DNA of 64,000 nt, taken from NCBI GenBank assembly GCA_020353515.1, contig CP070695.1, positions 3,774,277 to 3,838,276 on the forward strand. The letters are read 5' to 3'. The notes under the pieces are model-generated. The model worked only from the letters and a program-made list of their open reading frames with translations. It was not told where the DNA came from and searched no databases. This document shows positions 16,910 through 30,289 of this stretch, one piece after another. Made by a program: the position numbers and the translations under genes. Position 1 is the first letter of the stretch. Each line of letters begins with the position of its first letter. Origin of the DNA: Candidatus Heimdallarchaeota archaeon (lineage in GTDB: Archaea; Asgardarchaeota; Heimdallarchaeia; Hodarchaeales; Hodarchaeaceae).

Positions 16910-19489
16910 CTAGGATATCTCGAAAAATGATTGGAGGTCAGTGATTAGAGAATACGCATGTTTTACTGCATCCCTAGTTTCATTACAAGTAATTTTGATA
17001 TGGATCTCACCCTTTACTGGCGAGGTAATGTTAACAAGCGCTGTACCCAAAGAATTTAGACTGTTTGAAATCACACTGCGTATCTTAATTTTAGTAATAA
17101 CCTCTTTGTCTCCAGTCATTGTTATGTCTCGCCATGGATCACCCCATGATGGACCTCTAGGTTCGCCATGAGTTTTCATCTCAAGGGTAACTTTAGGAAA
17201 GTCATCACGTTTTGAATGGCCACTCATTATAATCTGCTTGTTTTCAAACTCAATTTTGATTTTCTTCATCAATCCCGAGTAAGGAATAAGATAAACAATA
17301 AGACCAGTATCACTTGGTTCGTAAATCAGATCTTGGACACGATATTGGACAGAAGAAAGCAGGGACATTTTCTCCTCGTCCACGAGGTTCTTTCCTTTTT
17401 GAAAAGGTTCTTTTTTAGGCAAAGCAGCAGACACAAAATCTACTGGTTTCTCTATTACTGGTTTCAATGTGGGAAGATCTTTAGATGGTTCAATACGTTC
17501 ATGAGAAACAGCTACTTTTTCCAATTCGTGATCTGGTGGTATATATCTTTCCTGAATTGTTGTCTCTCTAATTAAAGGTACCTTCCTTTGCCTATTGCGA
17601 TAATAACCAAAATAAGCAAACAAGACAATCATTGCTAGCAAAATAAACAATCCCAGTACAATAAAAGAGATAAGAATAAGATCTATAAGAAAATAGAATC
17701 CATTATAAGTAGTCTTATAATGAGAGATAATCTCAACGGTAAATCCCTCGGAACAGGTTGCTACAATTTTGATAGCATAAATAGAATCAGTTGATTCTAT
17801 ATTTGCAGTATCCCAATTATATGTTGTATTAGTAAGATTAGAAGCAAGGGGTATCCAAGTATCTCCATCTAGTGAATAATAGATTGAATATGTGGTCTGG
17901 TGACCCAGTGAATCTAAAGCAGCTGTCCAGCAAATAGTAACAACACCTGATGACATACTTAATTCCTTTGGATGAACAATGGTCGGTGGAAATAGCAGGT
18001 GTGTGTTTGGACTAGCAAGAGGAGAATTATCGTATGAATAGGTATAACCAGGGATACTGTAAGAATTATCAAGAATTCCATCCCTATTGTTATCAGGGCT
18101 AGTTAAATCGCTCCAATAATTATAAGTAAATGTGTTGTTGTCCCCATAGTTAAACACATGACGATTTCCACTATTGCTTATAAAATAGTTGAAGATAAAG
18201 TAGTTGTTGAGCGAGTCTTCAAGGTAAACACCATCACGACTATTATTACTCACCTTATTACGGGTAAAAACACTATTATTAGTATGTTCCATGTAAATCC
18301 CCCAATAATTACCATCCATTGAATTATTAATAATCCTCAAGTCAGTACAGTAGTGAGCAATCAGACCGACAGCTGAATTATCTAATTTTTGATCCCTGAC
18401 TTCAATTTCAGTACAATTGATTAAAATCACTTGTCCTACCCCCACAGGAACAATTTGATCCTCAATATTTTGCCAAAAAAGTAGTGACTTGCCATTTACA
18501 ATATTATTAGATACATTGGTTTGTAATATCTCTTCAAAACGACCGCCATAAATATAAAGACCATCTTTGACAAATGTATTGTTAATGATTGTATTATCGC
18601 TAGAATCACTTAAGAAGAGACCCCGTTCATTATCATTGAAGGAATTGTTAACAACGGTAATATTCTCAGATAATCGGAGATAGGCTCCTCGAAAATTGTT
18701 GGAAATGGTATTATTATAAATATTGATGTCTGAACTAAAAGCTGTTACTAAACCAACGGAAAAGCCAGCTAAGTTTTGACCTGTAACTTCAATAGAGGCA
18801 CAATTTATTAGGAAAATTTGCCCCGCACCCATGGGGATAGTTCTTCCCGAAACACCTTGCCAGAAAACTATAGGGGCACCATTTACGGTGTTTTCAGATA
18901 CTTCAGACTGTATAAATTCACTGAATTCTTCACCAAAAAGATATAACCCGCCAGTTATTAATGTGTTTGATGTTATAATGTTATTTCCAGAATAATAAAG
19001 TGAAATTCCGTAAATATTATCTGAGAGCGTATTTTCAGTCACTTCAATATTCTCACTGTAACATAGACGAATTCCTTCCTCGCTATTAGTTATATCATTG
19101 TTGGAAACTTCCCCATTTGTAACATTATGAAGATGTATTCCGTAATATCCATTATCCAATCTACAATTACTGATTCTGAAATAGATATTAGTTCCCCGAA
19201 TATCAATCAAATTTTCAGAACCAGAACCAGTAATTTCGTAACCAGAAATCACATAGGGATTTAGTGCTGTACCTTCTCCAGGCCAGCCTTCTGTATTCGC
19301 TTGATTGCTAAAATCGTTATTTCCATTTATATAAATGGTTGCATGTTCTACATGTGTTGTTGATATTTCTTTATAGGAATTAATTGCAAAAAATCCTTGG
19401 GTACAGTTAAAATTAGATAGAGGGTGGAACCAAAGATGTACTAAGACTAAAAGAAGGAAAGCCTTCTTCATCGTCACACCTGATCCCAA
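16910..19489 (-). CDS. Single-pass surface protein: signal peptide, NosD/CASH beta-helix, Fn3-like domain, TM, cytoplasmic domain
   Basis: MKKAFLLL signal; GI.L..S.N..I..N repeats; W..A.DS.GH...YS Fn3-like unit; TM LIDLILISFIVLGLFILLAMIVLF followed by a basic stop-transfer segment. Real start probably 19471 or 19477. Confidence 0.85.
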   Translation of the reverse strand: MGSGVTMKKAFLLLVLVHLWFHPLSNFNCTQGFFAINSYKEISTTHVEHATIYINGNNDFSNQANTEGWPGEGTALNPYVISGYEITGSGSENLIDIRGTNIYFRISNCRLDNGYYGIHLHNVTNGEVSNNDITNSEEGIRLCYSENIEVTENTLSDNIYGISLYYSGNNIITSNTLITGGLYLFGEEFSEFIQSEVSENTVNGAPIVFWQGVSGRTIPMGAGQIFLINCASIEVTGQNLAGFSVGLVTAFSSDINIYNNTISNNFRGAYLRLSENITVVNNSFNDNERGLFLSDSSDNTIINNTFVKDGLYIYGGRFEEILQTNVSNNIVNGKSLLFWQNIEDQIVPVGVGQVILINCTEIEVRDQKLDNSAVGLIAHYCTDLRIINNSMDGNYWGIYMEHTNNSVFTRNKVSNNSRDGVYLEDSLNNYFIFNYFISNSGNRHVFNYGDNNTFTYNYWSDLTSPDNNRDGILDNSYSIPGYTYSYDNSPLASPNTHLLFPPTIVHPKELSMSSGVVTICWTAALDSLGHQTTYSIYYSLDGDTWIPLASNLTNTTYNWDTANIESTDSIYAIKIVATCSEGFTVEIISHYKTTYNGFYFLIDLILISFIVLGLFILLAMIVLFAYFGYYRNRQRKVPLIRETTIQERYIPPDHELEKVAVSHERIEPSKDLPTLKPVIEKPVDFVSAALPKKEPFQKGKNLVDEEKMSLLSSVQYRVQDLIYEPSDTGLIVYLIPYSGLMKKIKIEFENKQIIMSGHSKRDDFPKVTLEMKTHGEPRGPSWGDPWRDITMTGDKEVITKIKIRSVISNSLNSLGTALVNITSPVKGEIHIKITCNETRDAVKHAYSLITDLQSFFEIS

Positions 19490-22215
19490 GGTTTTGGTAT
19501 CTCAAGAATGGTTGTAATCAAAGTAATTGTTTCTTGAAGAACTCTTTTCTCTTCATCAAAGAATCTGTCTACATCAAAATCAACTAAAAACTTCAAAGTT
19601 CTTTTTAACATATTGCGAAAAACGTTTTCATACAATTTAGAGTTCAAAAATAAATTGATCTGTGAAGCTAACCAATCACCCCACTCTTTCAGTTCCTTAT
19701 TTACAGCACCTAACCTTTGACTTGCCTTTAATAGCTCATTTAATAAATCTGGAAGCTCTGGTCGTTGAGGTTCAACCATCTGAAAACTTTCTTCTGGAAT
19801 TCTGAATGTGGTACGAAGATCCTCAGTCAGTCTCTTCATCTTGTTATAGAACATTCCAGCAGAGACGCTTCCTACCAGGTATCTCTTTTTCTGTGTAGAG
19901 AACCAGGATTTCTTTTTATTCCATGCTAATAGTTCTTGATTGTTTTTTGGTTGAAAGGATTGATTAGAAAAGATATAATCAAAAACTTCAATGGCTTGTT
20001 TTAACGACTCACGATCCTCAGTTAACTCAAATGGTTCTCTACGGAGCTGCTTACCCATAAGAGGAACTTCAGCTTCTTGTATAACCTTTGGAACAGGTTC
20101 AATCTCTATATCAGTAGATTCATTCACCAATTTTGAAGATTTCACGCCTTTAATCTCTTCCGTGACCACTACCTGCGTACCTGTTCCAACATCATTTTTA
20201 GTCACGACCTCTTTGGTCATAAATTGTAGTTCAGAATACGTTCGTGCTCCTAAGTCTTGCGCTCGCTGATATGATTTGTAATCAGGAAATCTATTTTTTT
20301 CTACTATTTTTGCAGTAGCTAAATCAGGGGCTCCCAGATGACGTATTAATTTTAGATCAGAATAATTCTTTACTCCTAGATCCTGACCTTGTTTATAGGT
20401 TTGATAATCAGGAAATCTCCCTTGTCGAATTTTTTCCGCAGTAGCTAAATCTGGGGCATCAAATTCTTCAACTAAACGCAACTCTGATATATTAGTAGCT
20501 CCAAATGATTTAGCTTTTTCATATTCTTTAAAATTGCGAAATCCTCTAATTCTTATTTTTTCAGCGGTTTCGAAGTCAGGAGCTTCATATTTATCGATAT
20601 ATTGTAAGTCTGAGTAATCTTTAACTTCTAACTCTTGTGCCCGTTTATATGACTCGTAATCAGGAAATTGGCCCTTTTGAATTGCATTCGCAGTCGTTAG
20701 ATCAGGGGCCTGGAATTCTTCAACTAAAAATAATTCAGAAACAGAGGAAGCACCAACAGTCAGAGCTTTTTGGTAAGTTTCAAAATGAGTAAATCCACCC
20801 TCTTTAATTTTCTCAGCTGTTATTAGATTTGGAGCTCCAAGACGATCGATAAACTCTAATTGGGAATATGTTTTAGCTCCTAGATTTTGTGCTCGATGAT
20901 AGGTTTCAAAATTTGGAAATCTTCCTCTCTTCATTGCTTTTTGATCACTAGTAGTCATCTCAGAAACAGGTTTGTCTTTTATAGGAGATTCCTGAGAAAC
21001 AGAAACTTCAATTTTTTCCTTGAGTTCGAGCTTATCTATGGGAATTTTAGCGTGTTCGGATCCAATCCAGCTCTTATATCCGCAAAACGGGCAGGGAGGG
21101 TCTATCATCCCTTTAATTACCATAAGAGATTCAAATTCTCTTATTTCAACCCCTCGCAGACAACGGGAACAAAATACAGATTGGTCAGTTATTATCTTAG
21201 TCCCTGACAGCATACTATACGCACTAATCACTCCTGTTAAAACGGTGTTTCTCATGTTCTTTGCGATATGGACAACACGAACTCTCTGCGGATAAAGAAC
21301 TCCAAGGCAGAAGAAAAAGAAAATGATGATCAAAAGCTCTGCTTTTAGTATAAGGGGATCTACATTGGGAACGGGAATATCAATTATAATGAGATAGAGA
21401 ATTATTGCCATTAACCCAAGCCAATGGAGATTATTCCAAAGTCCAATTAATGATCGCGCTATTAACTTGGGTAATGTTTCTATAAAGAAAATCCCAATAC
21501 GTTCTAAAACGAATCTAGAGGATTTTGTTATCCAACCACCAAATCTTCGAATACGAGTTCCTAATTCCTTAATTCCTAGTCCGAGATATCTGAAAAATCC
21601 TCTACCAATGGTTCCTATCAGCTGTCCGAGAGCAGAGAGAGCCTGTCGAATTCCACCAGCCTTTATCCATTCTTTGAAAATAAAAAACTGGTCTACTATT
21701 TTTTGGTCAAGTTCTGTGGCGCGAGTTGTAAAACCAATAATCATGGTGAATACGCCAGCTATGATCATGATTATGTAAATAAACTCAGCATCAGATCCAT
21801 ACCAGATTATATTAAGAAGAAATGTTATAAAAATAAGTACAACACCAACATATGCGATAATTGCCCCAAGTGCACCCCATTCGGTATATTCTCTCCAACT
21901 TAACACATCAATGACTAAACCACCAAACAAGATAAGCAGAGTAATCCCCATAACCGCGGTTACCAATCTTGATCTCACAGGATCAGGAATGGGAAGTGCA
22001 GGATTTTGAATCATAAACTGTACAAACAGACCTATGAAGAAGATTATAACTCCAATAATTGTGAACTTTGAAAAGGATATCAATTCTGTAACTGATGCTT
22101 CTTTAAGCTTTCTGGCTTTTGGTAATTCTTGCTGTGTAGATAGTTCTGATTCTTTTAAGGTGGCCTTGTTCTCTTTAGTAATTTTATTTTGTAACTTTTT
22201 ATCATCTATAGCCAT
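19474..22215 (-). CDS. Multi-pass membrane protein with C4 Zn finger and 42-aa tandem repeats
   Basis: About 6 TMs, amphipathic helix, CSRC..CPFC, ~5.7 repeats. Confidence 0.8.
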   Translation of the reverse strand: MAIDDKKLQNKITKENKATLKESELSTQQELPKARKLKEASVTELISFSKFTIIGVIIFFIGLFVQFMIQNPALPIPDPVRSRLVTAVMGITLLILFGGLVIDVLSWREYTEWGALGAIIAYVGVVLIFITFLLNIIWYGSDAEFIYIIMIIAGVFTMIIGFTTRATELDQKIVDQFFIFKEWIKAGGIRQALSALGQLIGTIGRGFFRYLGLGIKELGTRIRRFGGWITKSSRFVLERIGIFFIETLPKLIARSLIGLWNNLHWLGLMAIILYLIIIDIPVPNVDPLILKAELLIIIFFFFCLGVLYPQRVRVVHIAKNMRNTVLTGVISAYSMLSGTKIITDQSVFCSRCLRGVEIREFESLMVIKGMIDPPCPFCGYKSWIGSEHAKIPIDKLELKEKIEVSVSQESPIKDKPVSEMTTSDQKAMKRGRFPNFETYHRAQNLGAKTYSQLEFIDRLGAPNLITAEKIKEGGFTHFETYQKALTVGASSVSELFLVEEFQAPDLTTANAIQKGQFPDYESYKRAQELEVKDYSDLQYIDKYEAPDFETAEKIRIRGFRNFKEYEKAKSFGATNISELRLVEEFDAPDLATAEKIRQGRFPDYQTYKQGQDLGVKNYSDLKLIRHLGAPDLATAKIVEKNRFPDYKSYQRAQDLGARTYSELQFMTKEVVTKNDVGTGTQVVVTEEIKGVKSSKLVNESTDIEIEPVPKVIQEAEVPLMGKQLRREPFELTEDRESLKQAIEVFDYIFSNQSFQPKNNQELLAWNKKKSWFSTQKKRYLVGSVSAGMFYNKMKRLTEDLRTTFRIPEESFQMVEPQRPELPDLLNELLKASQRLGAVNKELKEWGDWLASQINLFLNSKLYENVFRNMLKRTLKFLVDFDVDRFFDEEKRVLQETITLITTILEIPKPWDQV
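20209..20925 (-). repeat. Intragenic 42-aa (126-nt) tandem repeat, ~5.7 copies
   Basis: Units start GRFPNF, GGFTHF, GQFPDY, RGFRNF, GRFPDY, NRFPDY; the five complete units end in GAPNL/APD[LF].TA..[IV]. Confidence 0.9.
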
Positions 22216-25200
22216 TATTTACCACCTCTGTCAGATTCAATGCTGTCTGTACTACTTAAGAGAGATTTAAGCCGCATATTTTCTTTCTTAAGGGCAACAA
22301 ACAAAAAGATCACTATACCCACAACAATGAGTGCTGCCCCAAGTGGAATCAAGAAAGGAGAATTAGCAAAAAAACCAAGTAAATTCCTTTCGTAGGTTCC
22401 CCATTGAATTATGCTTGCAAGAAAGGCCAAGACTCCTAAGATATCAATTCTGAGGAAGAATTCACTTATTTCAACACCAGATGGATCCACAAAGCCAGAA
22501 AGTAATACGATAACTCCATAGAAAGACACCGAAATAGCTAGTAAGATAAGAATTATGGGGATTGTCAAATCTATTGTTGTACGGAATAGCAAGATCAGTT
22601 GGTTTCCTAGCTTTCTCATAAAATCTCCGAGGGCATAAAAGGCTCGTTTAAATGCATCCTTGATTGCATGAACAGTACGAAGGAGAGCATCCCAAATCGC
22701 CTGTAGAGTATGAATAATGAAGTGATTAACTTTATGGAACCAAGTAGCATAAAGAATGACTAAACCACTTCCTATCAATAACCATCCAAGTGGCTCTTGT
22801 AGCCAGACTAGCCCTACAATAAGGGATAGAATACCAAGACACGTTGTGGAGAAGCGGATAATCTCGATATAGTATGTTTGGAAGAATTGGACTATCGTAT
22901 TATAAGTATCCTTGAGAAATTGGAAAAATGCTCTTAGTGCTTGACCAATAGCGTGCATCAGTTGTTGAAATGCATTTCGTAAAGTGATAGCTGATTGTAA
23001 GACAAATTGATTGACCTGATGGAACCACGCAAGGTAAAGAAGAAGAATACCACCAAGAATCAGCACTAATCGAAAATCAAAAAGCTCCCTTGAGGGAGGT
23101 AATAATCCAGCTAGAATCAGAATACTAGCGGTAATCGTTGTGACAGCTCTTAGAATATAAATACGGTGATCCCAAGCATATTGGAAAAAAGCAGCAATCG
23201 AATTCGTAACTGCAACGAGGAATTTATGAACTGCATTAGCTGTCTGGACCAAAGCGTTGCGAATTGCAATACTCAATTGTTTGAAAGCTAGGTTGACCTG
23301 ATGGAACCAGGCTACATAGAGAAGAAGAACACCAGCCAATATCAAAAACAGTTCAAGTCCACTTATCAAAGACATATCGTACATTCTATAGAAGAGTAAT
23401 AACAGACCAATAGAAGTCATGATTGAGCCAGAAATCGTCATTATTGCTCGGATTATGGCAATACGGTGTTCCCAAATAGAATGACCAGCCTGAATAAGAG
23501 CATTTATAGCTGTAACAAAGAAGTTTTTGATATCATGTGCAGTGTTCACAATAGCGTTGCGAATAGCCAAGAGGGATTGTTTAACAAAATGATTGACTTG
23601 ATAAAACCAAGCAGCGTAAAGAACACTTAGTCCAGCAATCAATAGAACTAGCTGAATTCCAAACTGAAGCTGTTCAGGAGAAATCTCTAGAAAAGGAACA
23701 ACTACAAAACTTACAAGGATCATTAGTGGGCCAAGAATGGTGGCAAAAGCCCGTAGAATCACAATACGATAAAACCAAATGGTGTGAAGAGCTTCAATTA
23801 CTGCCTCCTTAACTTTTATGAGAAAGTTATATAGCGCATGTCCTGTGAGCACAAGTGTATTCCAAATAGTAATTGCTGACTCTTTAACGAAGTGATTGAC
23901 CTGATTAAACCAAGCTATATAAAGAATAACGATACCAAACAATAAAAATAATAGTTCAAGGGTCTCAGACATCCATGGTACGAATGCAATGGTAAATCCA
24001 AGCATTGATATAAAACTGGTAACTGTTACAATAAATCCAGCGGTCGTTAGAATAGCTCTGGTGATAATAATATGATGATACCATATCATATGAATAGTTT
24101 GGATAAATGCATCTTTTACAGCAATGAAGAAGTTTTTGATGGCCTGACCAGTAAAGATGAATGCATTCTTGATAGCTATAGCTGTTTTGATCACTAGTTG
24201 TTTGAGCTCGTTTCTCCAGACGGTTCCATTGACAACAATGCCAATAACTATTAATCCTCCAGAAAGCCAAAGAATAAGAAGAAGATCCTGTGAAAGTAAC
24301 AGAAGGATTCCATAAAGTATCAGCACAGTGCTGAGAGTCGTTGTAACTCCACGGGAATTACTATGACGATCAGGAATATACCAAATCGCGACGCTAACAA
24401 TATAACCTGATAATAGAAAGAAGAATGGGCCATAAGGAAAGGCACTGATAGTGTTCCACGTAACAACAAGGCCATATACCGTGAAGCTCAAAGCACCTAT
24501 CGTGATTAACTGTCGGTAATAAGTTGTGAGAAACTGGGCAGTTGTGTTGATGGTGTACCCGATCGCATTTTTCAACGCAATAAGGATGCTTTTAAACGAC
24601 TGATAGATCTCTATTCGCCAGATCCATCCATTAATTGATATTCCCATAACAATCAAGAAACTTGAAATCACATAGGAAAGTTCATCAGGCGAAACAGGGG
24701 GCGTTAAAAGTAATCCTAAGAGTAAGATCCCCCACAGTACCACAGTAATACTTAGTGTGGTGGTTACCCCCCGAAAATAGGCATGACGATCAGGAATATG
24801 CCATATCGCAACACTTATCGCAAAACCTCCTAGAAAGAAACCTAAAGGTAATGGATCAAAGAAGCTATCTATTACTAATACATCCATGAGGAGAGGATTG
24901 AACAACTTTGTAAATTCAAATAAAAAAGATCCTAATGTAAGGAAGCTTACGCCAACAGTTGTAGTTATTTCTCTGTAATAAGTACGGAAGAACCAAACAA
25001 CTGTTTGAATTGTTCGTTTGACAGTATAATTAATGTTATCAAACCAAACTCGATAGAAAAGTAGTAATCCAGTCATAGGAAAAGAAATTGAAAAGAAAAA
25101 CCAATCAGGAATAGATTGTGTCAGTGCTTGAATTAAACCAATAATTATCAATAATACACCTATTAAAGACGCAAAAACTTGACCTAATGTTACAAAACCC

Positions 25201-26072
25201 TTGCTAAAATGGCTTGTAACCTTCATCTTGAATATATATAAATCTAGATAAACTATTGCTAATCCTATGACCCCAGATATGAAACTGAGTAAGAAAAAGT
25301 TTGAATCAATAAATGGTGCAAGTATAATTAGTATGAATCCCAGTCCTAAACTTAATTCAAAGATTCTAATGATTTCAATCCTGTATCTCCAAACTGTGTG
25401 ATTAATTTGACGGAACCAGGAACCCCACACGAGTCCCAATCCAATTCCTCCAATTATTAAGCCTCCAAATGGATCGCCTGGGAAAACAAAGATTGTTAAT
25501 ACACCCCATTCAACAAAGAACAATACAAGAATTGATAAAAAACTCCAATTAACTAAGAAAACTCCGACAACAGAAATTGTATAGCGAATAATAACCTCAA
25601 AATTTATTCTGAACCAAAATACCAGAGGTTCATCTATTCGAGTTGTCTCTGCAAAGAAACCAATAAATGTTAGAAGCAGTCCTAAAACCAGTAGAGGGAT
25701 AAGAATTACTAGCTGAAGAGCAACAAGTGACGAAACACTGCATAAGAATACAACAAACAATCCAAAGAAGCCCATATTCCCGCCTAAATTAGTTGATTTG
25801 TTTCGTTTTTCATTAACCCAACGTAACTGGAAAAAACCAAGGAAAATACCTGCTAAAAAAACAAGTATGAAGACGAAAATCAACATAGGAGATAATATAT
25901 TAGTGTAAACTTCGAAATCTGGTAGATATATTTGTACAACGTTTACTCCTAGGAGTCCGATTACTATCACGGATGCAAGCCGAACTAGATGGCGAATCAC
26001 ATTCTCCTGATAAATAGGTTCAGTTGGACTAAATTCTTCTACATCTGGTGCTCTTTTTTCTGTTTCAATCAT
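22215..26072 (-). CDS. Giant polytopic membrane protein of repeated TM-hairpin + amphipathic-helix units
   Basis: 1285 aa, hydrophobic throughout; recurring LY..WF.[QK]VN and duplicated AIW[HY]IPDRH...RGVTTTLS. Confidence 0.82.
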   Translation of the reverse strand: MIETEKRAPDVEEFSPTEPIYQENVIRHLVRLASVIVIGLLGVNVVQIYLPDFEVYTNILSPMLIFVFILVFLAGIFLGFFQLRWVNEKRNKSTNLGGNMGFFGLFVVFLCSVSSLVALQLVILIPLLVLGLLLTFIGFFAETTRIDEPLVFWFRINFEVIIRYTISVVGVFLVNWSFLSILVLFFVEWGVLTIFVFPGDPFGGLIIGGIGLGLVWGSWFRQINHTVWRYRIEIIRIFELSLGLGFILIILAPFIDSNFFLLSFISGVIGLAIVYLDLYIFKMKVTSHFSKGFVTLGQVFASLIGVLLIIIGLIQALTQSIPDWFFFSISFPMTGLLLFYRVWFDNINYTVKRTIQTVVWFFRTYYREITTTVGVSFLTLGSFLFEFTKLFNPLLMDVLVIDSFFDPLPLGFFLGGFAISVAIWHIPDRHAYFRGVTTTLSITVVLWGILLLGLLLTPPVSPDELSYVISSFLIVMGISINGWIWRIEIYQSFKSILIALKNAIGYTINTTAQFLTTYYRQLITIGALSFTVYGLVVTWNTISAFPYGPFFFLLSGYIVSVAIWYIPDRHSNSRGVTTTLSTVLILYGILLLLSQDLLLILWLSGGLIVIGIVVNGTVWRNELKQLVIKTAIAIKNAFIFTGQAIKNFFIAVKDAFIQTIHMIWYHHIIITRAILTTAGFIVTVTSFISMLGFTIAFVPWMSETLELLFLLFGIVILYIAWFNQVNHFVKESAITIWNTLVLTGHALYNFLIKVKEAVIEALHTIWFYRIVILRAFATILGPLMILVSFVVVPFLEISPEQLQFGIQLVLLIAGLSVLYAAWFYQVNHFVKQSLLAIRNAIVNTAHDIKNFFVTAINALIQAGHSIWEHRIAIIRAIMTISGSIMTSIGLLLLFYRMYDMSLISGLELFLILAGVLLLYVAWFHQVNLAFKQLSIAIRNALVQTANAVHKFLVAVTNSIAAFFQYAWDHRIYILRAVTTITASILILAGLLPPSRELFDFRLVLILGGILLLYLAWFHQVNQFVLQSAITLRNAFQQLMHAIGQALRAFFQFLKDTYNTIVQFFQTYYIEIIRFSTTCLGILSLIVGLVWLQEPLGWLLIGSGLVILYATWFHKVNHFIIHTLQAIWDALLRTVHAIKDAFKRAFYALGDFMRKLGNQLILLFRTTIDLTIPIILILLAISVSFYGVIVLLSGFVDPSGVEISEFFLRIDILGVLAFLASIIQWGTYERNLLGFFANSPFLIPLGAALIVVGIVIFLFVALKKENMRLKSLLSSTDSIESDRGGK
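22564..24236 (-). repeat. Intragenic ~94-101-aa repeats (WF.QVN units)
   Basis: DNA anchor TT[GA]AC.T[GT]AT..AACCA at 23896, 23593, 23293, 23011, 22726 (spacing 303/300/282/285 nt). Confidence 0.85.
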
Positions 26073-28996
26073 ATCTGACTTACTCCTTCTTCACTTTTTC
26101 GACTCAGTGCCTTACTGAGTCTCCTCCCGAAGTATACTTCAGGAATAATCGGTATTAATGCTAATCCAACAATGAATAATGAGAAATCTGGTGGAGGAGG
26201 TGGAGTATTGTGTACGGAAAATACTTCCCCAAGGATATTCTCAGAAGTTAATCCATCTGAACTGGTTGTTACAACTTTTATTTTATAATTAGCCCCATCG
26301 GGGACAGTGGTGGTGTTCCAAGTATAAGTGGTTGTAGTTAAGTCTGAGACTATCGGAATCCAAGTTGAACCATCATCTGGGGAATAATAGAGTGAATAGG
26401 TGACCTCTTGACCCAATGAATCAGTAGAGGCCGCCCATTGAATTGTAACCATTCCTTTAAGGGATTCTTCCCCAAAAGAAGTTGAAATTATCGGAGCTGT
26501 AATGTAATGTATCATAAATGAGCCATCAGAAAGATCCACAGCGGTTAATCCCTCAGAACAAGTTGCTATAACTTTGATTGTGAAATTGGTTCCTGTTGCG
26601 AGAACTGAAGTGTCCCAATCATAGCTACTTACATCTAAACTTGAAACTAGACTATTCCAAGTATTTCCACCATCAGACGAATAATACACAGTATAGGTAA
26701 CATCGTGGTTTAGTGAATCAGATGAGACCGACCATTGAATGGGAATAGTTCCATTAAGAATTTCCCCGCCATTAGGAGATAAAATGATCGGTTTAGAAAG
26801 CTCATTATGGACAGAAAACGTCGAACTGTAGATATCCTCAGAAATTAAACCTGCAGAACAACTTGCAGTAATTTTGATTAAAGAGGATGCACTATCGGGG
26901 ACATTGGTTGTGTTCCAAACATAATTTGTCATGTTCAAACCAGAAACAACTGGGATCCAAGATGAACCATTATTTGAGGAGTAAAATACTGAATAGGTGA
27001 CATCTTGACCCAAAGAATCAGTAGAGAGCGCCCATTGAAGAGAAACTGTACCTTTTAGGGGATCACTCCCAAAGGAAGTCAAAATGGTAGGTGGGGTAAT
27101 GTAATGTACCATAAATAAGCCATCAGAGACATCATCAGCTGTTAATCCCTCTGTACAAGTAGCTACAACTTTTATCGTGAAATTTTCCCCTACTCTAAGA
27201 CCTGATGTGTCCCAATTTAGACTAGGTGTATTCAAACTTGAATCAATTAAAATCCATGTGTTCCCATCGTCGATTGAATAATATACAGTATATGTAACAT
27301 CATGGCCAACTGAATCAGGCGAGGCTGACCACTGAATGGGAATAGTTCCATTGATAATTTCCCCACCATTAGGAGACAAGATAGTCGGTGAGGAAAGATA
27401 ATTATGAATAGTAAATATTCCATTAGATGTATCCTCGGCTGTCTCTCCCTCTGAACAGTTAGTAATAACTTTGATCAAGTAAGTTGACCCATCTGCAACG
27501 CTAGAAGTGTTCCATAAGTAATTGGTTGTGTTTAATCCAGAAGCCAAAAGCTCCCAAGTGAGTCCATTGTCCGCTGAAATGCTTATTGAATAAGTCACTA
27601 CATGTCCTTTTGAGTCAATGGCTGGCAACCACTGTATATCTTCGGTCAAGGTGTAGACCTCGCCCCCATTAGGTGTTAGAAGAGCAGGACTCGTAAGAAT
27701 ATCCACTACAGCACTAGGATATTGAGAAGTTAATGGATACGAGTCTTCGCCTCCCCCAATCCCATAGGGGTTATCTACAATACCATCAACATCAATGTCT
27801 GGACCTGTCCAGTCACTCCAGTGATTAAACGCAAAGATATTATTAATATACCCCTCATTTAATGCTTGAGAATCACCTCCACTGTTTTCAACGAAATTGT
27901 TCCAAATAATTGTATTAAAACTTGTAAGTGAACTTAAAACAAGACCATAATAGGAACTGTTGGTTAAATTGTTACTTGAAATGTTATTATAATTCGAAGA
28001 ATATTCTAAAGAAATTCCGCTCCCAAAATTATCATAAATATCGTTCCCAGCTAATATACTATTTGATCCACCAAAGTCGATACCATACCCTCCATTGTTA
28101 TATATGACATTTCGTTTGAAAACACAAGAATCAGAACGAGCTCGAATACCCCATCCGTTGTCATGAACAAAGTTTCCGATACATACGATATTCGGAGAAC
28201 CAACAATACTCATTCCAGATCCCATGTTTTCAAATACTCGATTATAACCAATAACAGTTTTTTGTGTTGATCCAATGAACAATCCTTGATCGGTGTTAAA
28301 CTTCACTGTATTGTTGTAAACATAAACCTCTTTTGTTTCCCCAATGCCCAATGCCCCATGTCCACCACACCCAGAAACCGTATTATTGATAATTGTGTTA
28401 TTCTGCGAATATCCTGTCGAAATTCCCCCGTCATTACAATTAGAAACAGTATTATTCCCAATAAGGATTTGATTAGAGGAGTCTACCGTAATCCCACCAC
28501 CGTCAATATTATAAACTGTATTATTTGAAATAATTCCATTTGACACATTATAGAAGTGAATTCCTTCAGGTGCAAAATTTAATCCGTTAAGAATATTACT
28601 TCGAACACAAAAATAAGCTGTCGTACCGCTGATGCTGATCAAACTCTCACTTGAAGCAGTAATACTAAAACCTTCAATTAAGTAAGGATCATCAATTGTC
28701 CCTGATCCTGGAAATCCTTGTATAATAAACTGGTTGTTCGAGGATATAGAAATAGGATCGTGCTCTATAAGATTAGAATGATAAGTTTTTAATCTCATAG
28801 ATTGAGGAACATCGGTATTCTCTGAAGGAGTACAAATTCTCTCAATACATGAAACAGGCTTATACATTACTTGAACTGGTACATTAAGACTATGGCATAA
28901 TACCATAGTAAATATAATTAGAAATAAATAAAGTAATTTATTTCGGTTAAACAAGATTTTTTTCAATATTATCCCCTTTTTCCTCAAAAACTCCAA
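26069..28996 (-). CDS. Membrane-anchored surface protein: signal, NosD/CASH beta-helix, five Fn3-like repeats, C-terminal TM
   Basis: GSGTIDDPYLIEG, Asn-ladder repeats, NHWSDWTGPDIDVDGIVD, PPPPP linker then TM. Confidence 0.87.
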   Translation of the reverse strand: MEFLRKKGIILKKILFNRNKLLYLFLIIFTMVLCHSLNVPVQVMYKPVSCIERICTPSENTDVPQSMRLKTYHSNLIEHDPISISSNNQFIIQGFPGSGTIDDPYLIEGFSITASSESLISISGTTAYFCVRSNILNGLNFAPEGIHFYNVSNGIISNNTVYNIDGGGITVDSSNQILIGNNTVSNCNDGGISTGYSQNNTIINNTVSGCGGHGALGIGETKEVYVYNNTVKFNTDQGLFIGSTQKTVIGYNRVFENMGSGMSIVGSPNIVCIGNFVHDNGWGIRARSDSCVFKRNVIYNNGGYGIDFGGSNSILAGNDIYDNFGSGISLEYSSNYNNISSNNLTNSSYYGLVLSSLTSFNTIIWNNFVENSGGDSQALNEGYINNIFAFNHWSDWTGPDIDVDGIVDNPYGIGGGEDSYPLTSQYPSAVVDILTSPALLTPNGGEVYTLTEDIQWLPAIDSKGHVVTYSISISADNGLTWELLASGLNTTNYLWNTSSVADGSTYLIKVITNCSEGETAEDTSNGIFTIHNYLSSPTILSPNGGEIINGTIPIQWSASPDSVGHDVTYTVYYSIDDGNTWILIDSSLNTPSLNWDTSGLRVGENFTIKVVATCTEGLTADDVSDGLFMVHYITPPTILTSFGSDPLKGTVSLQWALSTDSLGQDVTYSVFYSSNNGSSWIPVVSGLNMTNYVWNTTNVPDSASSLIKITASCSAGLISEDIYSSTFSVHNELSKPIILSPNGGEILNGTIPIQWSVSSDSLNHDVTYTVYYSSDGGNTWNSLVSSLDVSSYDWDTSVLATGTNFTIKVIATCSEGLTAVDLSDGSFMIHYITAPIISTSFGEESLKGMVTIQWAASTDSLGQEVTYSLYYSPDDGSTWIPIVSDLTTTTYTWNTTTVPDGANYKIKVVTTSSDGLTSENILGEVFSVHNTPPPPPDFSLFIVGLALIPIIPEVYFGRRLSKALSRKSEEGVSQI
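26207..27697 (-). repeat. Five ~100-aa Fn3-like domain repeats
   Basis: Units start PALLTPNGGE, PTILSPNGGE, PTILTSFG, PIILSPNGGE, PIISTSFG; units 2-3 are duplicated as 4-5. Confidence 0.88.
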
Positions 28997-29065
28997 CCTT
29001 CATACAATAAAAGGCAACTTTGTGCGTGAGAGAGAATAATAACACTTATGTGAGAGATGATTTCC

Positions 29066-29083
29066 TTATAAGTGTACTTATAA
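29066..29083. promoter_or_regulatory. Candidate operator, 8-2-8 palindrome in a divergent promoter
   Basis: TTATAAGT-GT-ACTTATAA containing TATA-like TTATAA on both strands; additional ACACTTAT half-site at 29042-29049. Confidence 0.45.
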
Positions 29084-29216
29084 TTCATGAATGAGAAATT
29101 AATTTCTTAACGTAAAAGAACCGCTGTTATTTTTTCCGAGAGAATTCTTTGTCATACAAACTAAAGTTAAATGTCTAATAAACAAACCATATTGGTAAAA
29201 CCAAAAGAGGAATAGA

Positions 29217-29906
29217 GTGATAGGAATGGATTTACTACCTGACTTGGAGCCTACTCTTGAAATTTTAGATAAAATCGTTGCATTCGAAGAAAAAATGGAA
29301 ATTAATAGAATGTTGCTGTTTATAGCACTTGCTGGATTCATTACCATAATTGGAGGCTGGATTGAATATGTTTGTTATCACTTCCTGTCTATAGATTCAA
29401 CTTTCTTCATTCTCGGGTTAGCCTCCAATAGTGATCTAGTTTTACTTCTTGGTTTATGGCTTATCTACCTTTTACCCCTTCTTGGGGTTATTATCTTTAC
29501 TACTGGATTATCTCCTGGTTTTATCAATTGGAATAAGGCCTATCGAAAAGTAGGACTAATCATAATTGGATTATTTGTGCTTACCCATTTATTAGTGATC
29601 ATCTTTGGTAGTACCAATCCTCAATTAATACCTACAATATGGGGAATTACCGTTTCTCTTGGTTTTTTACTCACAAGCAGAATTCTTTATTTAGAAACGA
29701 AAAATAAACAGTTACAATCAGGGTTATTTATATTTGGAATATCTGCCTTGGTTCTTGGATTTTTTTCTTCATTAGTTATCTATCCAGGATCACCAGAATT
29801 GGCAATGTTTCTTTATTGTACAATTTTTGGTCTAATTTTAATTGGGGTGAGTATGACCGCTTATTGGAATGTAAGCAGGTTAACTGCAAAACAAAAGGAA
29901 GCTTAA
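29217..29906 (+). CDS. Hypothetical membrane protein (~6 TM)
   Basis: Hydrophobic segments; directly upstream of a wHTH regulator. Confidence 0.75.
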   Translation: MIGMDLLPDLEPTLEILDKIVAFEEKMEINRMLLFIALAGFITIIGGWIEYVCYHFLSIDSTFFILGLASNSDLVLLLGLWLIYLLPLLGVIIFTTGLSPGFINWNKAYRKVGLIIIGLFVLTHLLVIIFGSTNPQLIPTIWGITVSLGFLLTSRILYLETKNKQLQSGLFIFGISALVLGFFSSLVIYPGSPELAMFLYCTIFGLILIGVSMTAYWNVSRLTAKQKEA

Positions 29907-29926
29907 TTTAAAGACCAGGTGATAGA

Positions 29927-30289
29927 ATGGAAGAGAGTCCAGCATTAATGGAAGACCTCCTTAGTGGTTTGGATTCCAACATTCATGAACCAGTTCGCTT
30001 GGGAATACTAATGTTCCTACATCTTCACTCTTCCCTTGCGTTCAGTGTACTCCAGAAAGGATTGGGTGTAACATCAGGAAACCTGAACAGCCATTTAACA
30101 AAACTGGAATCGATCGGTTTTGTTACCAGAGAAAAAATGTTCGTAAATCTTCGCCCTAGAACTGTTATTCACATCACTACAGAAGGTAGAAGGTCTTTGA
30201 AGGAATATACTAAATCACTCAAATCAATTTTAGTTGGTATAGAGCAGGGAGTCGGTAAAGAATCTCCATTAGAAGTATATTCTCCCTAG
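29927..30289 (+). CDS. Winged-helix transcriptional regulator (HTH_34 / ArsR-MarR-like)
   Basis: IHEPVRLGIL..L, TSGNLNSHLTKLE..G, RPRT...IT.EGR. Confidence 0.9.
   Translation: MEESPALMEDLLSGLDSNIHEPVRLGILMFLHLHSSLAFSVLQKGLGVTSGNLNSHLTKLESIGFVTREKMFVNLRPRTVIHITTEGRRSLKEYTKSLKSILVGIEQGVGKESPLEVYSP

Follow-up and report, generated by a model that had tools for sequence, protein, structure and literature searches.

Four large genes lie tightly packed on one strand of a Candidatus Heimdallarchaeota contig, two for surface proteins (A and A') on the outside and two for membrane proteins (B and B') between them. The question raised by this locus is whether it encodes one fixed envelope complex, as a preliminary description proposed, or a conserved core with exchangeable partners. 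The window, i.e., the whole stretch of 64,000 nucleotides that was analysed, comes from the Hodarchaeales, an order that, with its relatives, counts among the archaeal groups placed nearest to eukaryotes.

Gene layout and co-inheritance

The four genes proved to be real minus-strand open reading frames with overlapping or 2-nt junctions: A (26069..28996, 975 aa counted from the TTG at 28996), B (22215..26072, 1285 aa), B' (19474..22215, 913 aa) and A' (16910..19489, 859 aa counted from TTG). Read directly in the sequence, the A/B junction is ATGA, the B/B' junction TAATG and the B'/A' junction TGA-CG-ATG; because of this last reading, A' likely starts at the ATG at 19471 (MKKAF...) rather than at the TTG at 19489, and orthologs suggest that A starts about 10 codons after the TTG at 28996. 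A Shine-Dalgarno-like GGAG is placed within the EEGV codons of A (GAAGAAGGAGTA), 10 nt ahead of the ATG of B. An AT-rich divergent intergenic region of 220 bp (28997..29216) parts gene A from a syntenic plus-strand pair at 29217-30289, which encodes a 229-aa membrane protein without a known family and an HTH_34 winged-helix protein.

Both B and B' were detected in 30 Heimdallarchaeia genomes. In 29 of these they are neighbours by coordinates, with B ahead of B', on one strand and mostly overlapping, and the pairing spans at least three families of the class, although related genomes are non-independent samples. The stop codon of B overlaps the start codon of B' in every locus read (nine of the same genus, five in two other families, and G006, G015 and G086). 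Neither protein was found in the other Asgard classes searched. The outer genes behave differently. Gene A was found upstream of B in six of the 11 same-genus genomes read (source window included), is absent in G007, G008 and G018, and wherever it occurs overlaps B by 4 nt, except for a 3-nt gap in G014. Full-length A' is confined to two of the 11, the source window and its nearest sister species G014, with a tail-only version in one further genome and a 39-aa relic in G007, and no A-like gene exists in the five loci read from the two other families. The complete four-gene set is therefore present in 2 of about 11 related genomes. Checked by synteny, co-conservation is strict for B-B' and does not extend to A and A', and since these occur at the stated frequencies, the fixed stoichiometric A-B-B'-A' complex is unsupported; the distribution supports a B-B' core with optional surface partners. 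An SPFH and zinc-ribbon gene beside B-B' was discarded as evidence, as it is confined to one genus (g8) and absent near the source locus.

Membrane proteins B and B'

The larger membrane protein, B, has about 26 predicted TM helices and about eight repeats of ~100 aa, arranged as an N-terminal module (aa 1-345), the repeats (aa ~345-1150) and a C-terminal module (aa ~1056-1285) that is kept across the Heimdallarchaeia class. Each repeat unit consists of a TM hairpin and a polar helical linker of ~55 aa (WFxQVN...IWxHRIxIIRA); the repeats of both B and B' surfaced by self-BLAST only after the proteins were cut into fragments. The linkers are modestly amphipathic (hydrophobic moment z 0.2-2.6 vs. 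shuffles; weak in four of six repeats), and the charge distribution is consistent with cytoplasmic B linkers and a cytoplasmic B' arm. Comparison by hhalign shows distant B-like proteins to be homologs of B (probability 97.5%, E 5.7e-12). Searches of Pfam and NCBIfam (E<=10, whole protein and pieces) and of PDB matched no family and returned only noise, and the ESM Atlas gave no usable match. The match to a phage/tailocin tape-measure protein (FtbJ, 9j1k_J; E 1.4e-5) was rejected as compositional, caused by hydrophobic helical repeats (score 26.4 with bias 47.1). Since B of G015 has shrunk to ~209 aa and still accompanies B', the long repeat array is dispensable.

The claim that both inner proteins are polytopic holds for B, while B' has six TM helices and then ~570 cytoplasmic residues, in the order 6-TM domain, C4 zinc ribbon, six 42-aa repeats and C-terminal helical domain. 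The TM domain (aa 1-340; 21196..22215, minus strand), in which a long helical hairpin on the cytoplasmic side separates TM4 from TM5, was found in Heimdallarchaeia only (37 of 400 Asgard genomes, all of this one class), and its family has 55 representatives among 1.84 billion proteins. Its AF2 model (pLDDT 83.5) retrieved nothing in Foldseek at E<=0.001, and the best VIA result, Z 8.3, fell on generic helical segments. As regards a known transporter fold in the inner proteins, these searches speak clearly against one in the B' TM domain, whereas the model of B is too poor for such a statement (pLDDT 58, pTM 0.27).

The zinc ribbon (21016..21195, minus strand; C349-x2-C352-x22-C375-x2-C378) is nearly invariant, and its closest sequence likeness in PDB is the zinc ribbon of eS31 (E 0.0019). 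It is not a RING: the source B' has only these four cysteines vs. the eight cross-brace ligands needed, and the genus B' profile gave no RING match in PDB at E<=10, nor in Pfam. The six 42-aa repeats (20206..20940, minus strand) follow the consensus GxFPDYxxYxxAQxLGxxxYSxLxxxxxxxAPDLxTAxKI, and the C-terminal helical domain, B'_C (aa 700-913), occupies 19477..20115 on the same strand. No known family was matched by B', arm included, in Pfam, NCBIfam (E<=10, whole and pieces) or PDB sequences; the reported lack of a transporter ATPase or enzyme motif was confirmed with Pfam and NCBIfam for B, B' and the A' tail. The N-terminal extension of short B' forms (L016) was considered as a relative of the source B' C-terminus and dismissed (BLASTP E 15).

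A shared N-terminal domain of B and B' had also been claimed. BLASTP did not show it (E 0.41) and an initial profile comparison gave little (probability 15%), but better alignments support it: B aa ~54-154 (25611..25913, minus strand) and B' aa 79-177 align over 98 columns with an hhalign probability of 91.8% (E 7.5e-7; LRW...LGG/LGA...IGFxxExTxxDE). These profiles support B and B' being distant paralogs within a three-TM N-terminal module of ~100 aa, detectable by profiles only. The B and B' families were not described in the literature searched, and both appear to be new membrane-protein families, B' with a TM domain of confidently predicted fold and no solved relative.

Surface proteins A and A'

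The view of the outer proteins as single-pass proteins with a beta-helix and Fn3-like units was borne out, as each has a signal-like N-terminus, one late TM helix and matches to Pfam Beta_helix (PF13229) and NosD (PF05048), whose gathering cut-offs served as the test for a right-handed parallel beta-helix. Both proteins exceed them (A: Beta_helix 5.6e-25, 88.2 bits, and NosD 3.9e-20, 72.7 bits; A': Beta_helix 104 bits, and NosD 3.9e-33, 115.1 bits). Assignment to the NosD copper-maturation protein (TIGR04247) was rejected, with 62 and 85.4 bits against the NCBIfam equivalog cut-off of 300. Pfam fn3 matched neither A nor A' and reached 26.8 bits in one of their paralogs; A also gave Tissue_fac (28.3 bits, cut-off 27) and F5_F8_type_C (39.8 bits), with no clean domain. 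The units in question are Fn3-like beta-sandwiches bearing an Asp-box-like motif (SxDxGxTW in the ~100-aa units of A).

Protein A runs from a signal/TM segment through a right-handed beta-helix and five Fn3-like units to a C-terminal TM anchor and a tail of 17 aa, while A' consists of a signal peptide, beta-helix, one Fn3-like unit, a TM helix (aa 594-631) and a cytoplasmic tail of 228 aa, in agreement with the long stalk and short tail described for one protein and the short stalk and ~230-aa cytoplasmic part described for the other. The anchor of A (26072..26221, minus strand) is composed of PPPPPDF, the TM helix, PE(V/L)Y, G(R/K)(R/K)xS(K/R) and then EEGV. It is kept in every A ortholog at 50-77% identity, despite very variable ectodomains and ortholog sizes of 225 to 975 aa, and tblastn against the source genome returned only the self match. 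The tail of A' (16913..17596, minus strand) is a genus-specific C-terminal domain present in five proteins of the source genome; it has no match in Pfam or among PDB sequences (whole and pieces, permissive Pfam/NCBIfam thresholds), and the ESM Atlas offered sub-threshold structural leads only (TM 0.54-0.57 to DUF3156/DUF3137-like clusters).

The source genome holds at least 25 loci of the beta-helix family and at least 23 with Fn3-like units. A and A' are indeed homologous (BLASTP E 3e-35), but among the paralogs of either one the other comes only at about rank 19 to 22, so that 'paralogous pair' is too strong a term. They are best read as changeable add-ons from a large surface-protein family.

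Possible roles and known systems

The B' proteins of sister families carry a true RING-H2 finger at their end, which B' of the source genus lacks. A sister-lineage profile matches RNF165/Arkadia (2.5e-10) and synoviolin (1.4e-4), Pfam zf-RING_2 is over the cut-off at 31.6 bits, and the sixth zinc ligand of the archaeal B' fingers is His, not Cys. The source genome has four E2 (UQ_con) genes. In other genera the 42-aa repeat also occurs on 4-TM proteins, whose RING matches are weak and stay below threshold (zf-RING_2 22-24 bits), and in an FG-GAP surface protein, where it lies on the tail in the cytoplasm. Elsewhere in the source genome, at 3251012-3255743 of G000, a gene for a soluble protein joins a double zinc ribbon, a B'_C-like domain (homologous to B'_C, E 8e-18) and an A'-type tail domain, directly upstream of the gene for a beta-helix/Fn3/TM/tail-domain protein. 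This fusion may represent a Rosetta-stone link between B'_C and the A' tail, seen at one paralogous locus of one genome.

The reading that we prefer, with a little under an even chance of being right, is a B-B' membrane platform with a cytoplasmic arm at which variable surface proteins would dock. The conserved unit would be a two-gene module, the long repeat-built polytopic B and the 6-TM B' with its large cytoplasmic arm, most likely joined in one hetero-oligomeric membrane platform. In the source genus the arm (zinc ribbon, 42-aa repeats and B'_C) is most likely an adaptor, which in A'-type proteins would hold on to the cytoplasmic tail domain; docking of A-type proteins would run via the conserved TM anchor and short tail, and the exchangeable beta-helix/Fn3 ectodomains would point outward and bind glycans or surfaces. 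We infer this physical complex, its docking and topology, and any activity from the order, coupling and distribution of the genes and from the domain architectures and homologies observed. As the B' scaffold of sister families ends in RING-H2, the ancestral platform probably recruited E2~ubiquitin; the source B', which lost or never had the finger, would be a scaffold with no catalytic role. Since roughly half of the related loci do without A and most do without A', docking is excluded as the core function.

Somewhat unlikely, in our estimate, is that B-B' works alone and that A and A' come from a fast-evolving surface family whose genes landed at a hypervariable, permissive site, having neither a physical nor a functional tie to the pair. 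The many beta-helix and Fn3-like loci, the distant relationship of A and A', their absence from several or most genomes and from the loci of the two other families, and the gene turnover witnessed by the 39-aa relic all fit such insertion; the nearly constant spacing of A and B, an anchor specific to the module and absent elsewhere in the genome, and the B'_C-tail fusion adjoining an A'-like gene at a second locus do not. We consider it unlikely that B-B' is a Heimdallarchaeia-specific membrane ubiquitin-ligase platform, marking proteins in the membrane or at the surface so that they are extracted or enter ESCRT-type sorting, in which the RING of the source genus was replaced by the zinc ribbon and adaptor repeats holding A and A'. 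A polytopic RING-H2 protein with an obligate polytopic partner would then be an archaeal counterpart and, by analogy, possibly a forerunner of eukaryotic membrane E3 complexes.

It seems quite improbable that all four proteins form a stoichiometric envelope complex in which B bends or shapes the membrane and surface binding is linked to protrusion or vesicle formation. The tight packing in the source window and G014 and the TM-hairpin array of B, with its polar helical linkers, are in its favour, as is, by analogy only, the non-significant top Foldseek row of the low-confidence B model, PIEZO1 (E 0.098, TM 0.09), but the rarity of the full set, the short B of G015 and the weak linker amphipathicity argue against it. 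Exosortases and archaeosortases recognise a sorting signal, and the Pro-rich motif, TM helix and basic cluster of the A anchor look like one; still, a machine that exports, anchors or processes A-type proteins on the basis of such recognition is very improbable, given that B and B' contain no exosortase, archaeosortase or other Pfam/NCBIfam family even at E<=10, most B-B' loci are without an A gene, and the A tail is conserved 17 residues beyond the basic cluster, unlike a cleaved signal. A variant of this machine, a MotA/ExbB-like ion-driven stator, draws on weak profile matches to the MotA/TolQ/ExbB chain 8vvi_F (E 0.0037, 0.15 and 2.2), while no MotA/ExbB entry appears in the first 50 structural rows for the B' TM model.

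Two class-restricted, strictly paired orphan membrane-protein families are now linked to a RING-H2 finger, cytoplasmic adaptor repeats and surface receptors, and for annotation the conserved B-B' core can be told apart from its changeable surface-protein passengers. If a membrane ubiquitin-ligase or receptor-scaffolding platform is true, early ubiquitin-dependent handling of membrane proteins would become testable with defined archaeal parts.

Among known systems, A and A' resemble NosD/CASH-type beta-helix surface proteins with Fn3-like units in their Beta_helix/NosD matches, their Fn3-like beta-sandwich units and the single C-terminal anchor; they differ in that A' adds a genus-specific cytoplasmic domain without a known family. 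PIEZO1 is a repeat-built curved membrane protein, and B likewise strings together many TM units in tandem, with helices on one face of the membrane, an analogy only, as the low-confidence model and the sequence of B show no significant similarity to PIEZO. Sister-lineage B' resembles E3 ligases of the Hrd1/synoviolin, gp78/AMFR and RNF13/RNF24 type, having 6-8 TM helices and then a cytoplasmic C-terminal RING-H2 that aligns to the RING of RNF165/Arkadia, RLIM, RNF24, RNF38 and synoviolin, and being encoded together with a polytopic partner. Unlike Hrd1-type E3 ligases, the source B' has only a C4 zinc ribbon and no RING match, and neither sequence comparison nor the Foldseek and VIA lists matched its TM domain to Hrd1 or another solved chain; only the RING of the sister-lineage profile touches synoviolin/HRD1. 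The E1/E2/RING cascade of Caldiarchaeum includes a small soluble archaeal RING E3, encoded in a ubiquitin operon and working with eukaryote-like E1/E2, which demonstrates that a RING from archaea can be an active ligase (PMC5654768); the RING of sister-lineage B' is also prokaryotic, but sits on a polytopic protein whose gene is paired with that of B, apart from the ubiquitin genes.

Gene cluster and its outer surface proteins

The window spans 64 kb (positions 3,774,277-3,838,276) of a 4.94-Mb genome that is one contig, and its interval 16910-28996 is filled by four ORFs, all on the minus strand, in the order A-B-B'-A'. The preliminary description had all four genes joined by overlapping stop and start codons; as read from the sequence, this holds for A/B (ATGA) and B/B' (TAATG), while the B'/A' junction reads TGA-CG-ATG, so that the start of A' is most likely the ATG at 19471 (MKKAFLLL...). 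The EEGV codons which end A (GAAGAAGGAGTA) include a GGAG 10 nt ahead of the B start, which would fit translational coupling of A and B, and the EEGV end is kept in all A orthologs. The AT skew on the plus strand is strongly positive across gene B (0.15-0.20, 22001-26000), because the minus-strand coding is rich in Phe, Leu and Ile.

The neighbours of the cluster are unrelated genes, namely a flanking MacB-type ABC pair on the plus strand, a downstream SDR gene on the minus strand and, upstream and divergent (29217-30289, plus strand), genes for a 229-aa membrane protein (5-7 TM helices, no Pfam match) and an HTH_34 winged-helix protein. The divergent pair is syntenic beside the module in three related genomes (G011, G007 and G008), and could be the regulator of the module.

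Both outer proteins, A (975 aa) and A' (859 aa), match Pfam Beta_helix and NosD and score far under the NCBIfam NosD equivalog cut-off. In both, Fn3-like units (about 100 aa, with an Asp-box-like motif) are combined with a single late TM helix; A contains five units and ends in a short tail, and A' has one unit and a 228-aa cytoplasmic domain (the tail domain), for which Pfam, NCBIfam and PDB sequence searches gave no family match. They had been described as paralogs, and BLASTP does align them (E 3e-35), but in whole-genome tblastn searches, which find at least 25 beta-helix and at least 23 Fn3-like loci, each comes no higher than about 19th to 22nd in the list of relatives of the other. A and A' both belong to a large family of surface proteins and are no dedicated pair.

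Architecture of the inner membrane proteins

In B (1285 aa), about 26 hydrophobic helices were counted. The protein contains roughly eight repeats, most of about 100 aa and the first two of about 140 aa, and each is built of a TM hairpin and a polar helical linker of roughly 55 aa. The net charge is basic in the linkers and acidic in the hairpin loops, which suggests that the linkers are cytoplasmic; their hydrophobic moment is clearly above shuffles in only 2/6 repeats. The model of B, which covers aa 1-1200 and used 30 sequences, consists entirely of helices, among them long continuous ones, and is of low confidence (pLDDT 58, pTM 0.27), so the fold search with it was uninformative.

B' (913 aa) has six TM helices, of which TM4 and TM5 are separated by a long helical hairpin. 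It also has an almost invariant zinc ribbon (CxxC-x22-CxxC), six 42-aa repeats and a C-terminal helical domain. Its TM domain and ribbon were modelled from 51 sequences (pLDDT 83.5, pTM 0.60); Foldseek against PDB returned no match at E<=0.001 (best TM 0.26), and the best result of an exhaustive VIA search (Z 8.3) concerned generic helical segments, within the background of helical models. Searches of Pfam and NCBIfam gave no match for B or for B'. In G011 (L011:10685-13384), B' lies in two ORFs, a 394-aa TM/zinc-ribbon part and a 326-aa repeat part with in-frame TAG stops between them, which may reflect a pseudogene, a genuine splitting of the gene or a mistake in the assembly.

The N-terminal domain said to be shared by the inner proteins is real at the profile level. 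BLASTP is blind to it, giving no match between B and B', and the first hhalign comparison reached a probability of 15%; with a focused B alignment and the 51-sequence B' alignment, the value rose to 91.8% (E 7.5e-7, 98 columns), pairing B aa ~54-154 with B' aa 79-177 through common LRW, LGG/LGA and IGFxxExTxxDE motifs.

Distribution of the module and its zinc-binding domains

A search of 5.8 billion clustered proteins yielded 20 B relatives, none with a Pfam domain and all those with a source-given name called "hypothetical protein"; every organism named is an Asgard MAG labelled Hodarchaeota, Heimdallarchaeota or "Promethearchaeota". In a set of 1.84 billion proteins, the B' TM-domain profile found no more than 55 representatives. 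Of 400 Asgard genomes, 37 have the B' domain, all from the window's class, and B is present in 37/83 genomes of that class; 30 have both, adjacent with B upstream in 29 of them by coordinates, and the remaining one is a 710-contig MAG. These are counts and not statistics, as the genomes are related and hence not independent. Genomes with just one of the two hold mostly contig-end fragments or weak matches. B and B' overlap or abut in all loci read (nine same-genus, five from two other families, plus G006, G015 and G086). Through its C-terminal module, B is homologous to the distant B-like proteins of 600-860 aa (hhalign 97.5%, E 5.7e-12). In G015 (CP070760.1; L067:10010-10639), B comprises only about 209 aa of this module and overlaps the start of a full-length B'; it seems that the array of repeats is dispensable, or else that part of the gene is deleted.

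In sister families, B' ends in a zinc ribbon and a RING-H2 finger (Pfam zf-RING_2 up to 31.6 bits) with invariant ligands C-x2-C...C-x2-C-x4-H-x2-H...C-P-x-C, and its profile best matches RNF165/Arkadia (2.5e-10), then EL5, RLIM, listerin, RNF24 and synoviolin. A genus profile search found no RING finger in B' of the window's genus, whose zinc ribbon is closest to the eS31 ribbon (E 0.0019). The 42-aa repeat occurs in other Heimdallarchaeial genera on 4-TM proteins ending in sub-threshold RING-like matches (zf-RING_2 22-24 bits), and in G038 (L078:5473-8598) on the post-TM cytoplasmic tail of a 1041-aa integrin-like FG-GAP beta-propeller/TSP3 surface protein. Elsewhere in the window's genome there are genes for four E2-like proteins and for several RING proteins. 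In a single other genus of Heimdallarchaeia (L062:10359-11348, L063:10077-11060, L064:5179-6168), the next gene downstream of the B-like/RING-B' pair codes for an SPFH (Band 7) protein that has a double zinc ribbon; this gene was seen neither in other genera nor near the window's locus.

Conserved core, accessory proteins and known systems

The preliminary description proposed a symmetric four-protein, membrane-shaping complex. As a conserved entity this is not supported: among 11 same-genus genomes, A lies upstream of B in six, the window's included (G014, G011, G021, G002, G013, G020), and full-length A' is confined to the window and to G014, its nearest sister species. Across orthologs A varies from 225 to 975 aa with its membrane-anchor region kept (50-77% identity). 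Five loci from two other families were read, and none contains an A-like gene. In G008, A' is represented by a tail-only version of 351 aa, while a 39-aa relic of the tail end (64% identity) just downstream of B' in G007 (L013:13403-13519) points to loss of A' there. In the subclade of G002, G013, G020 and G018 (L016:12895-13446 and neighbours), the genes after the short B' form code for a conserved membrane protein of 365 aa, a YjeF_N protein, a small GTPase of the Ras family and another membrane protein, of 625 aa.

The tail domain is genus-specific (16/21 genomes), always C-terminal, and present in five proteins of the window's genome. At a paralogous two-gene locus there (G000:C1:3251012-3255743; L069:7012-11743), a 429-aa soluble protein combines a double zinc ribbon, a region like the C-terminal domain of B' and the tail domain, and directly downstream lies a 1137-aa protein with beta-helix, Fn3, TM helix and tail domain. 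This arrangement is a Rosetta-stone-type link between the B' C-terminal domain and A'-type receptors. The best paralog of A', another beta-helix protein, lies 5 kb from this locus.

These findings support a B-B' membrane platform that is conserved and has an adaptor arm in the cytoplasm, and accessory surface proteins that come and go; the physical complex, docking, topology and activity are putative, and the four-protein membrane-shaping complex is kept as a minority possibility.

A and A' are ordinary new additions to a kind of surface protein that is already known. For the B and B' families, no description was found in the literature searched, and from the negative searches the B-B' module is rated as apparently outside every described family. 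Archaeal RING ligase activity has been demonstrated only for a small soluble protein (PMC5654768). B-B' is possibly a candidate Asgard membrane RING-ligase platform, of which the window's version would be a RING-less derivative.
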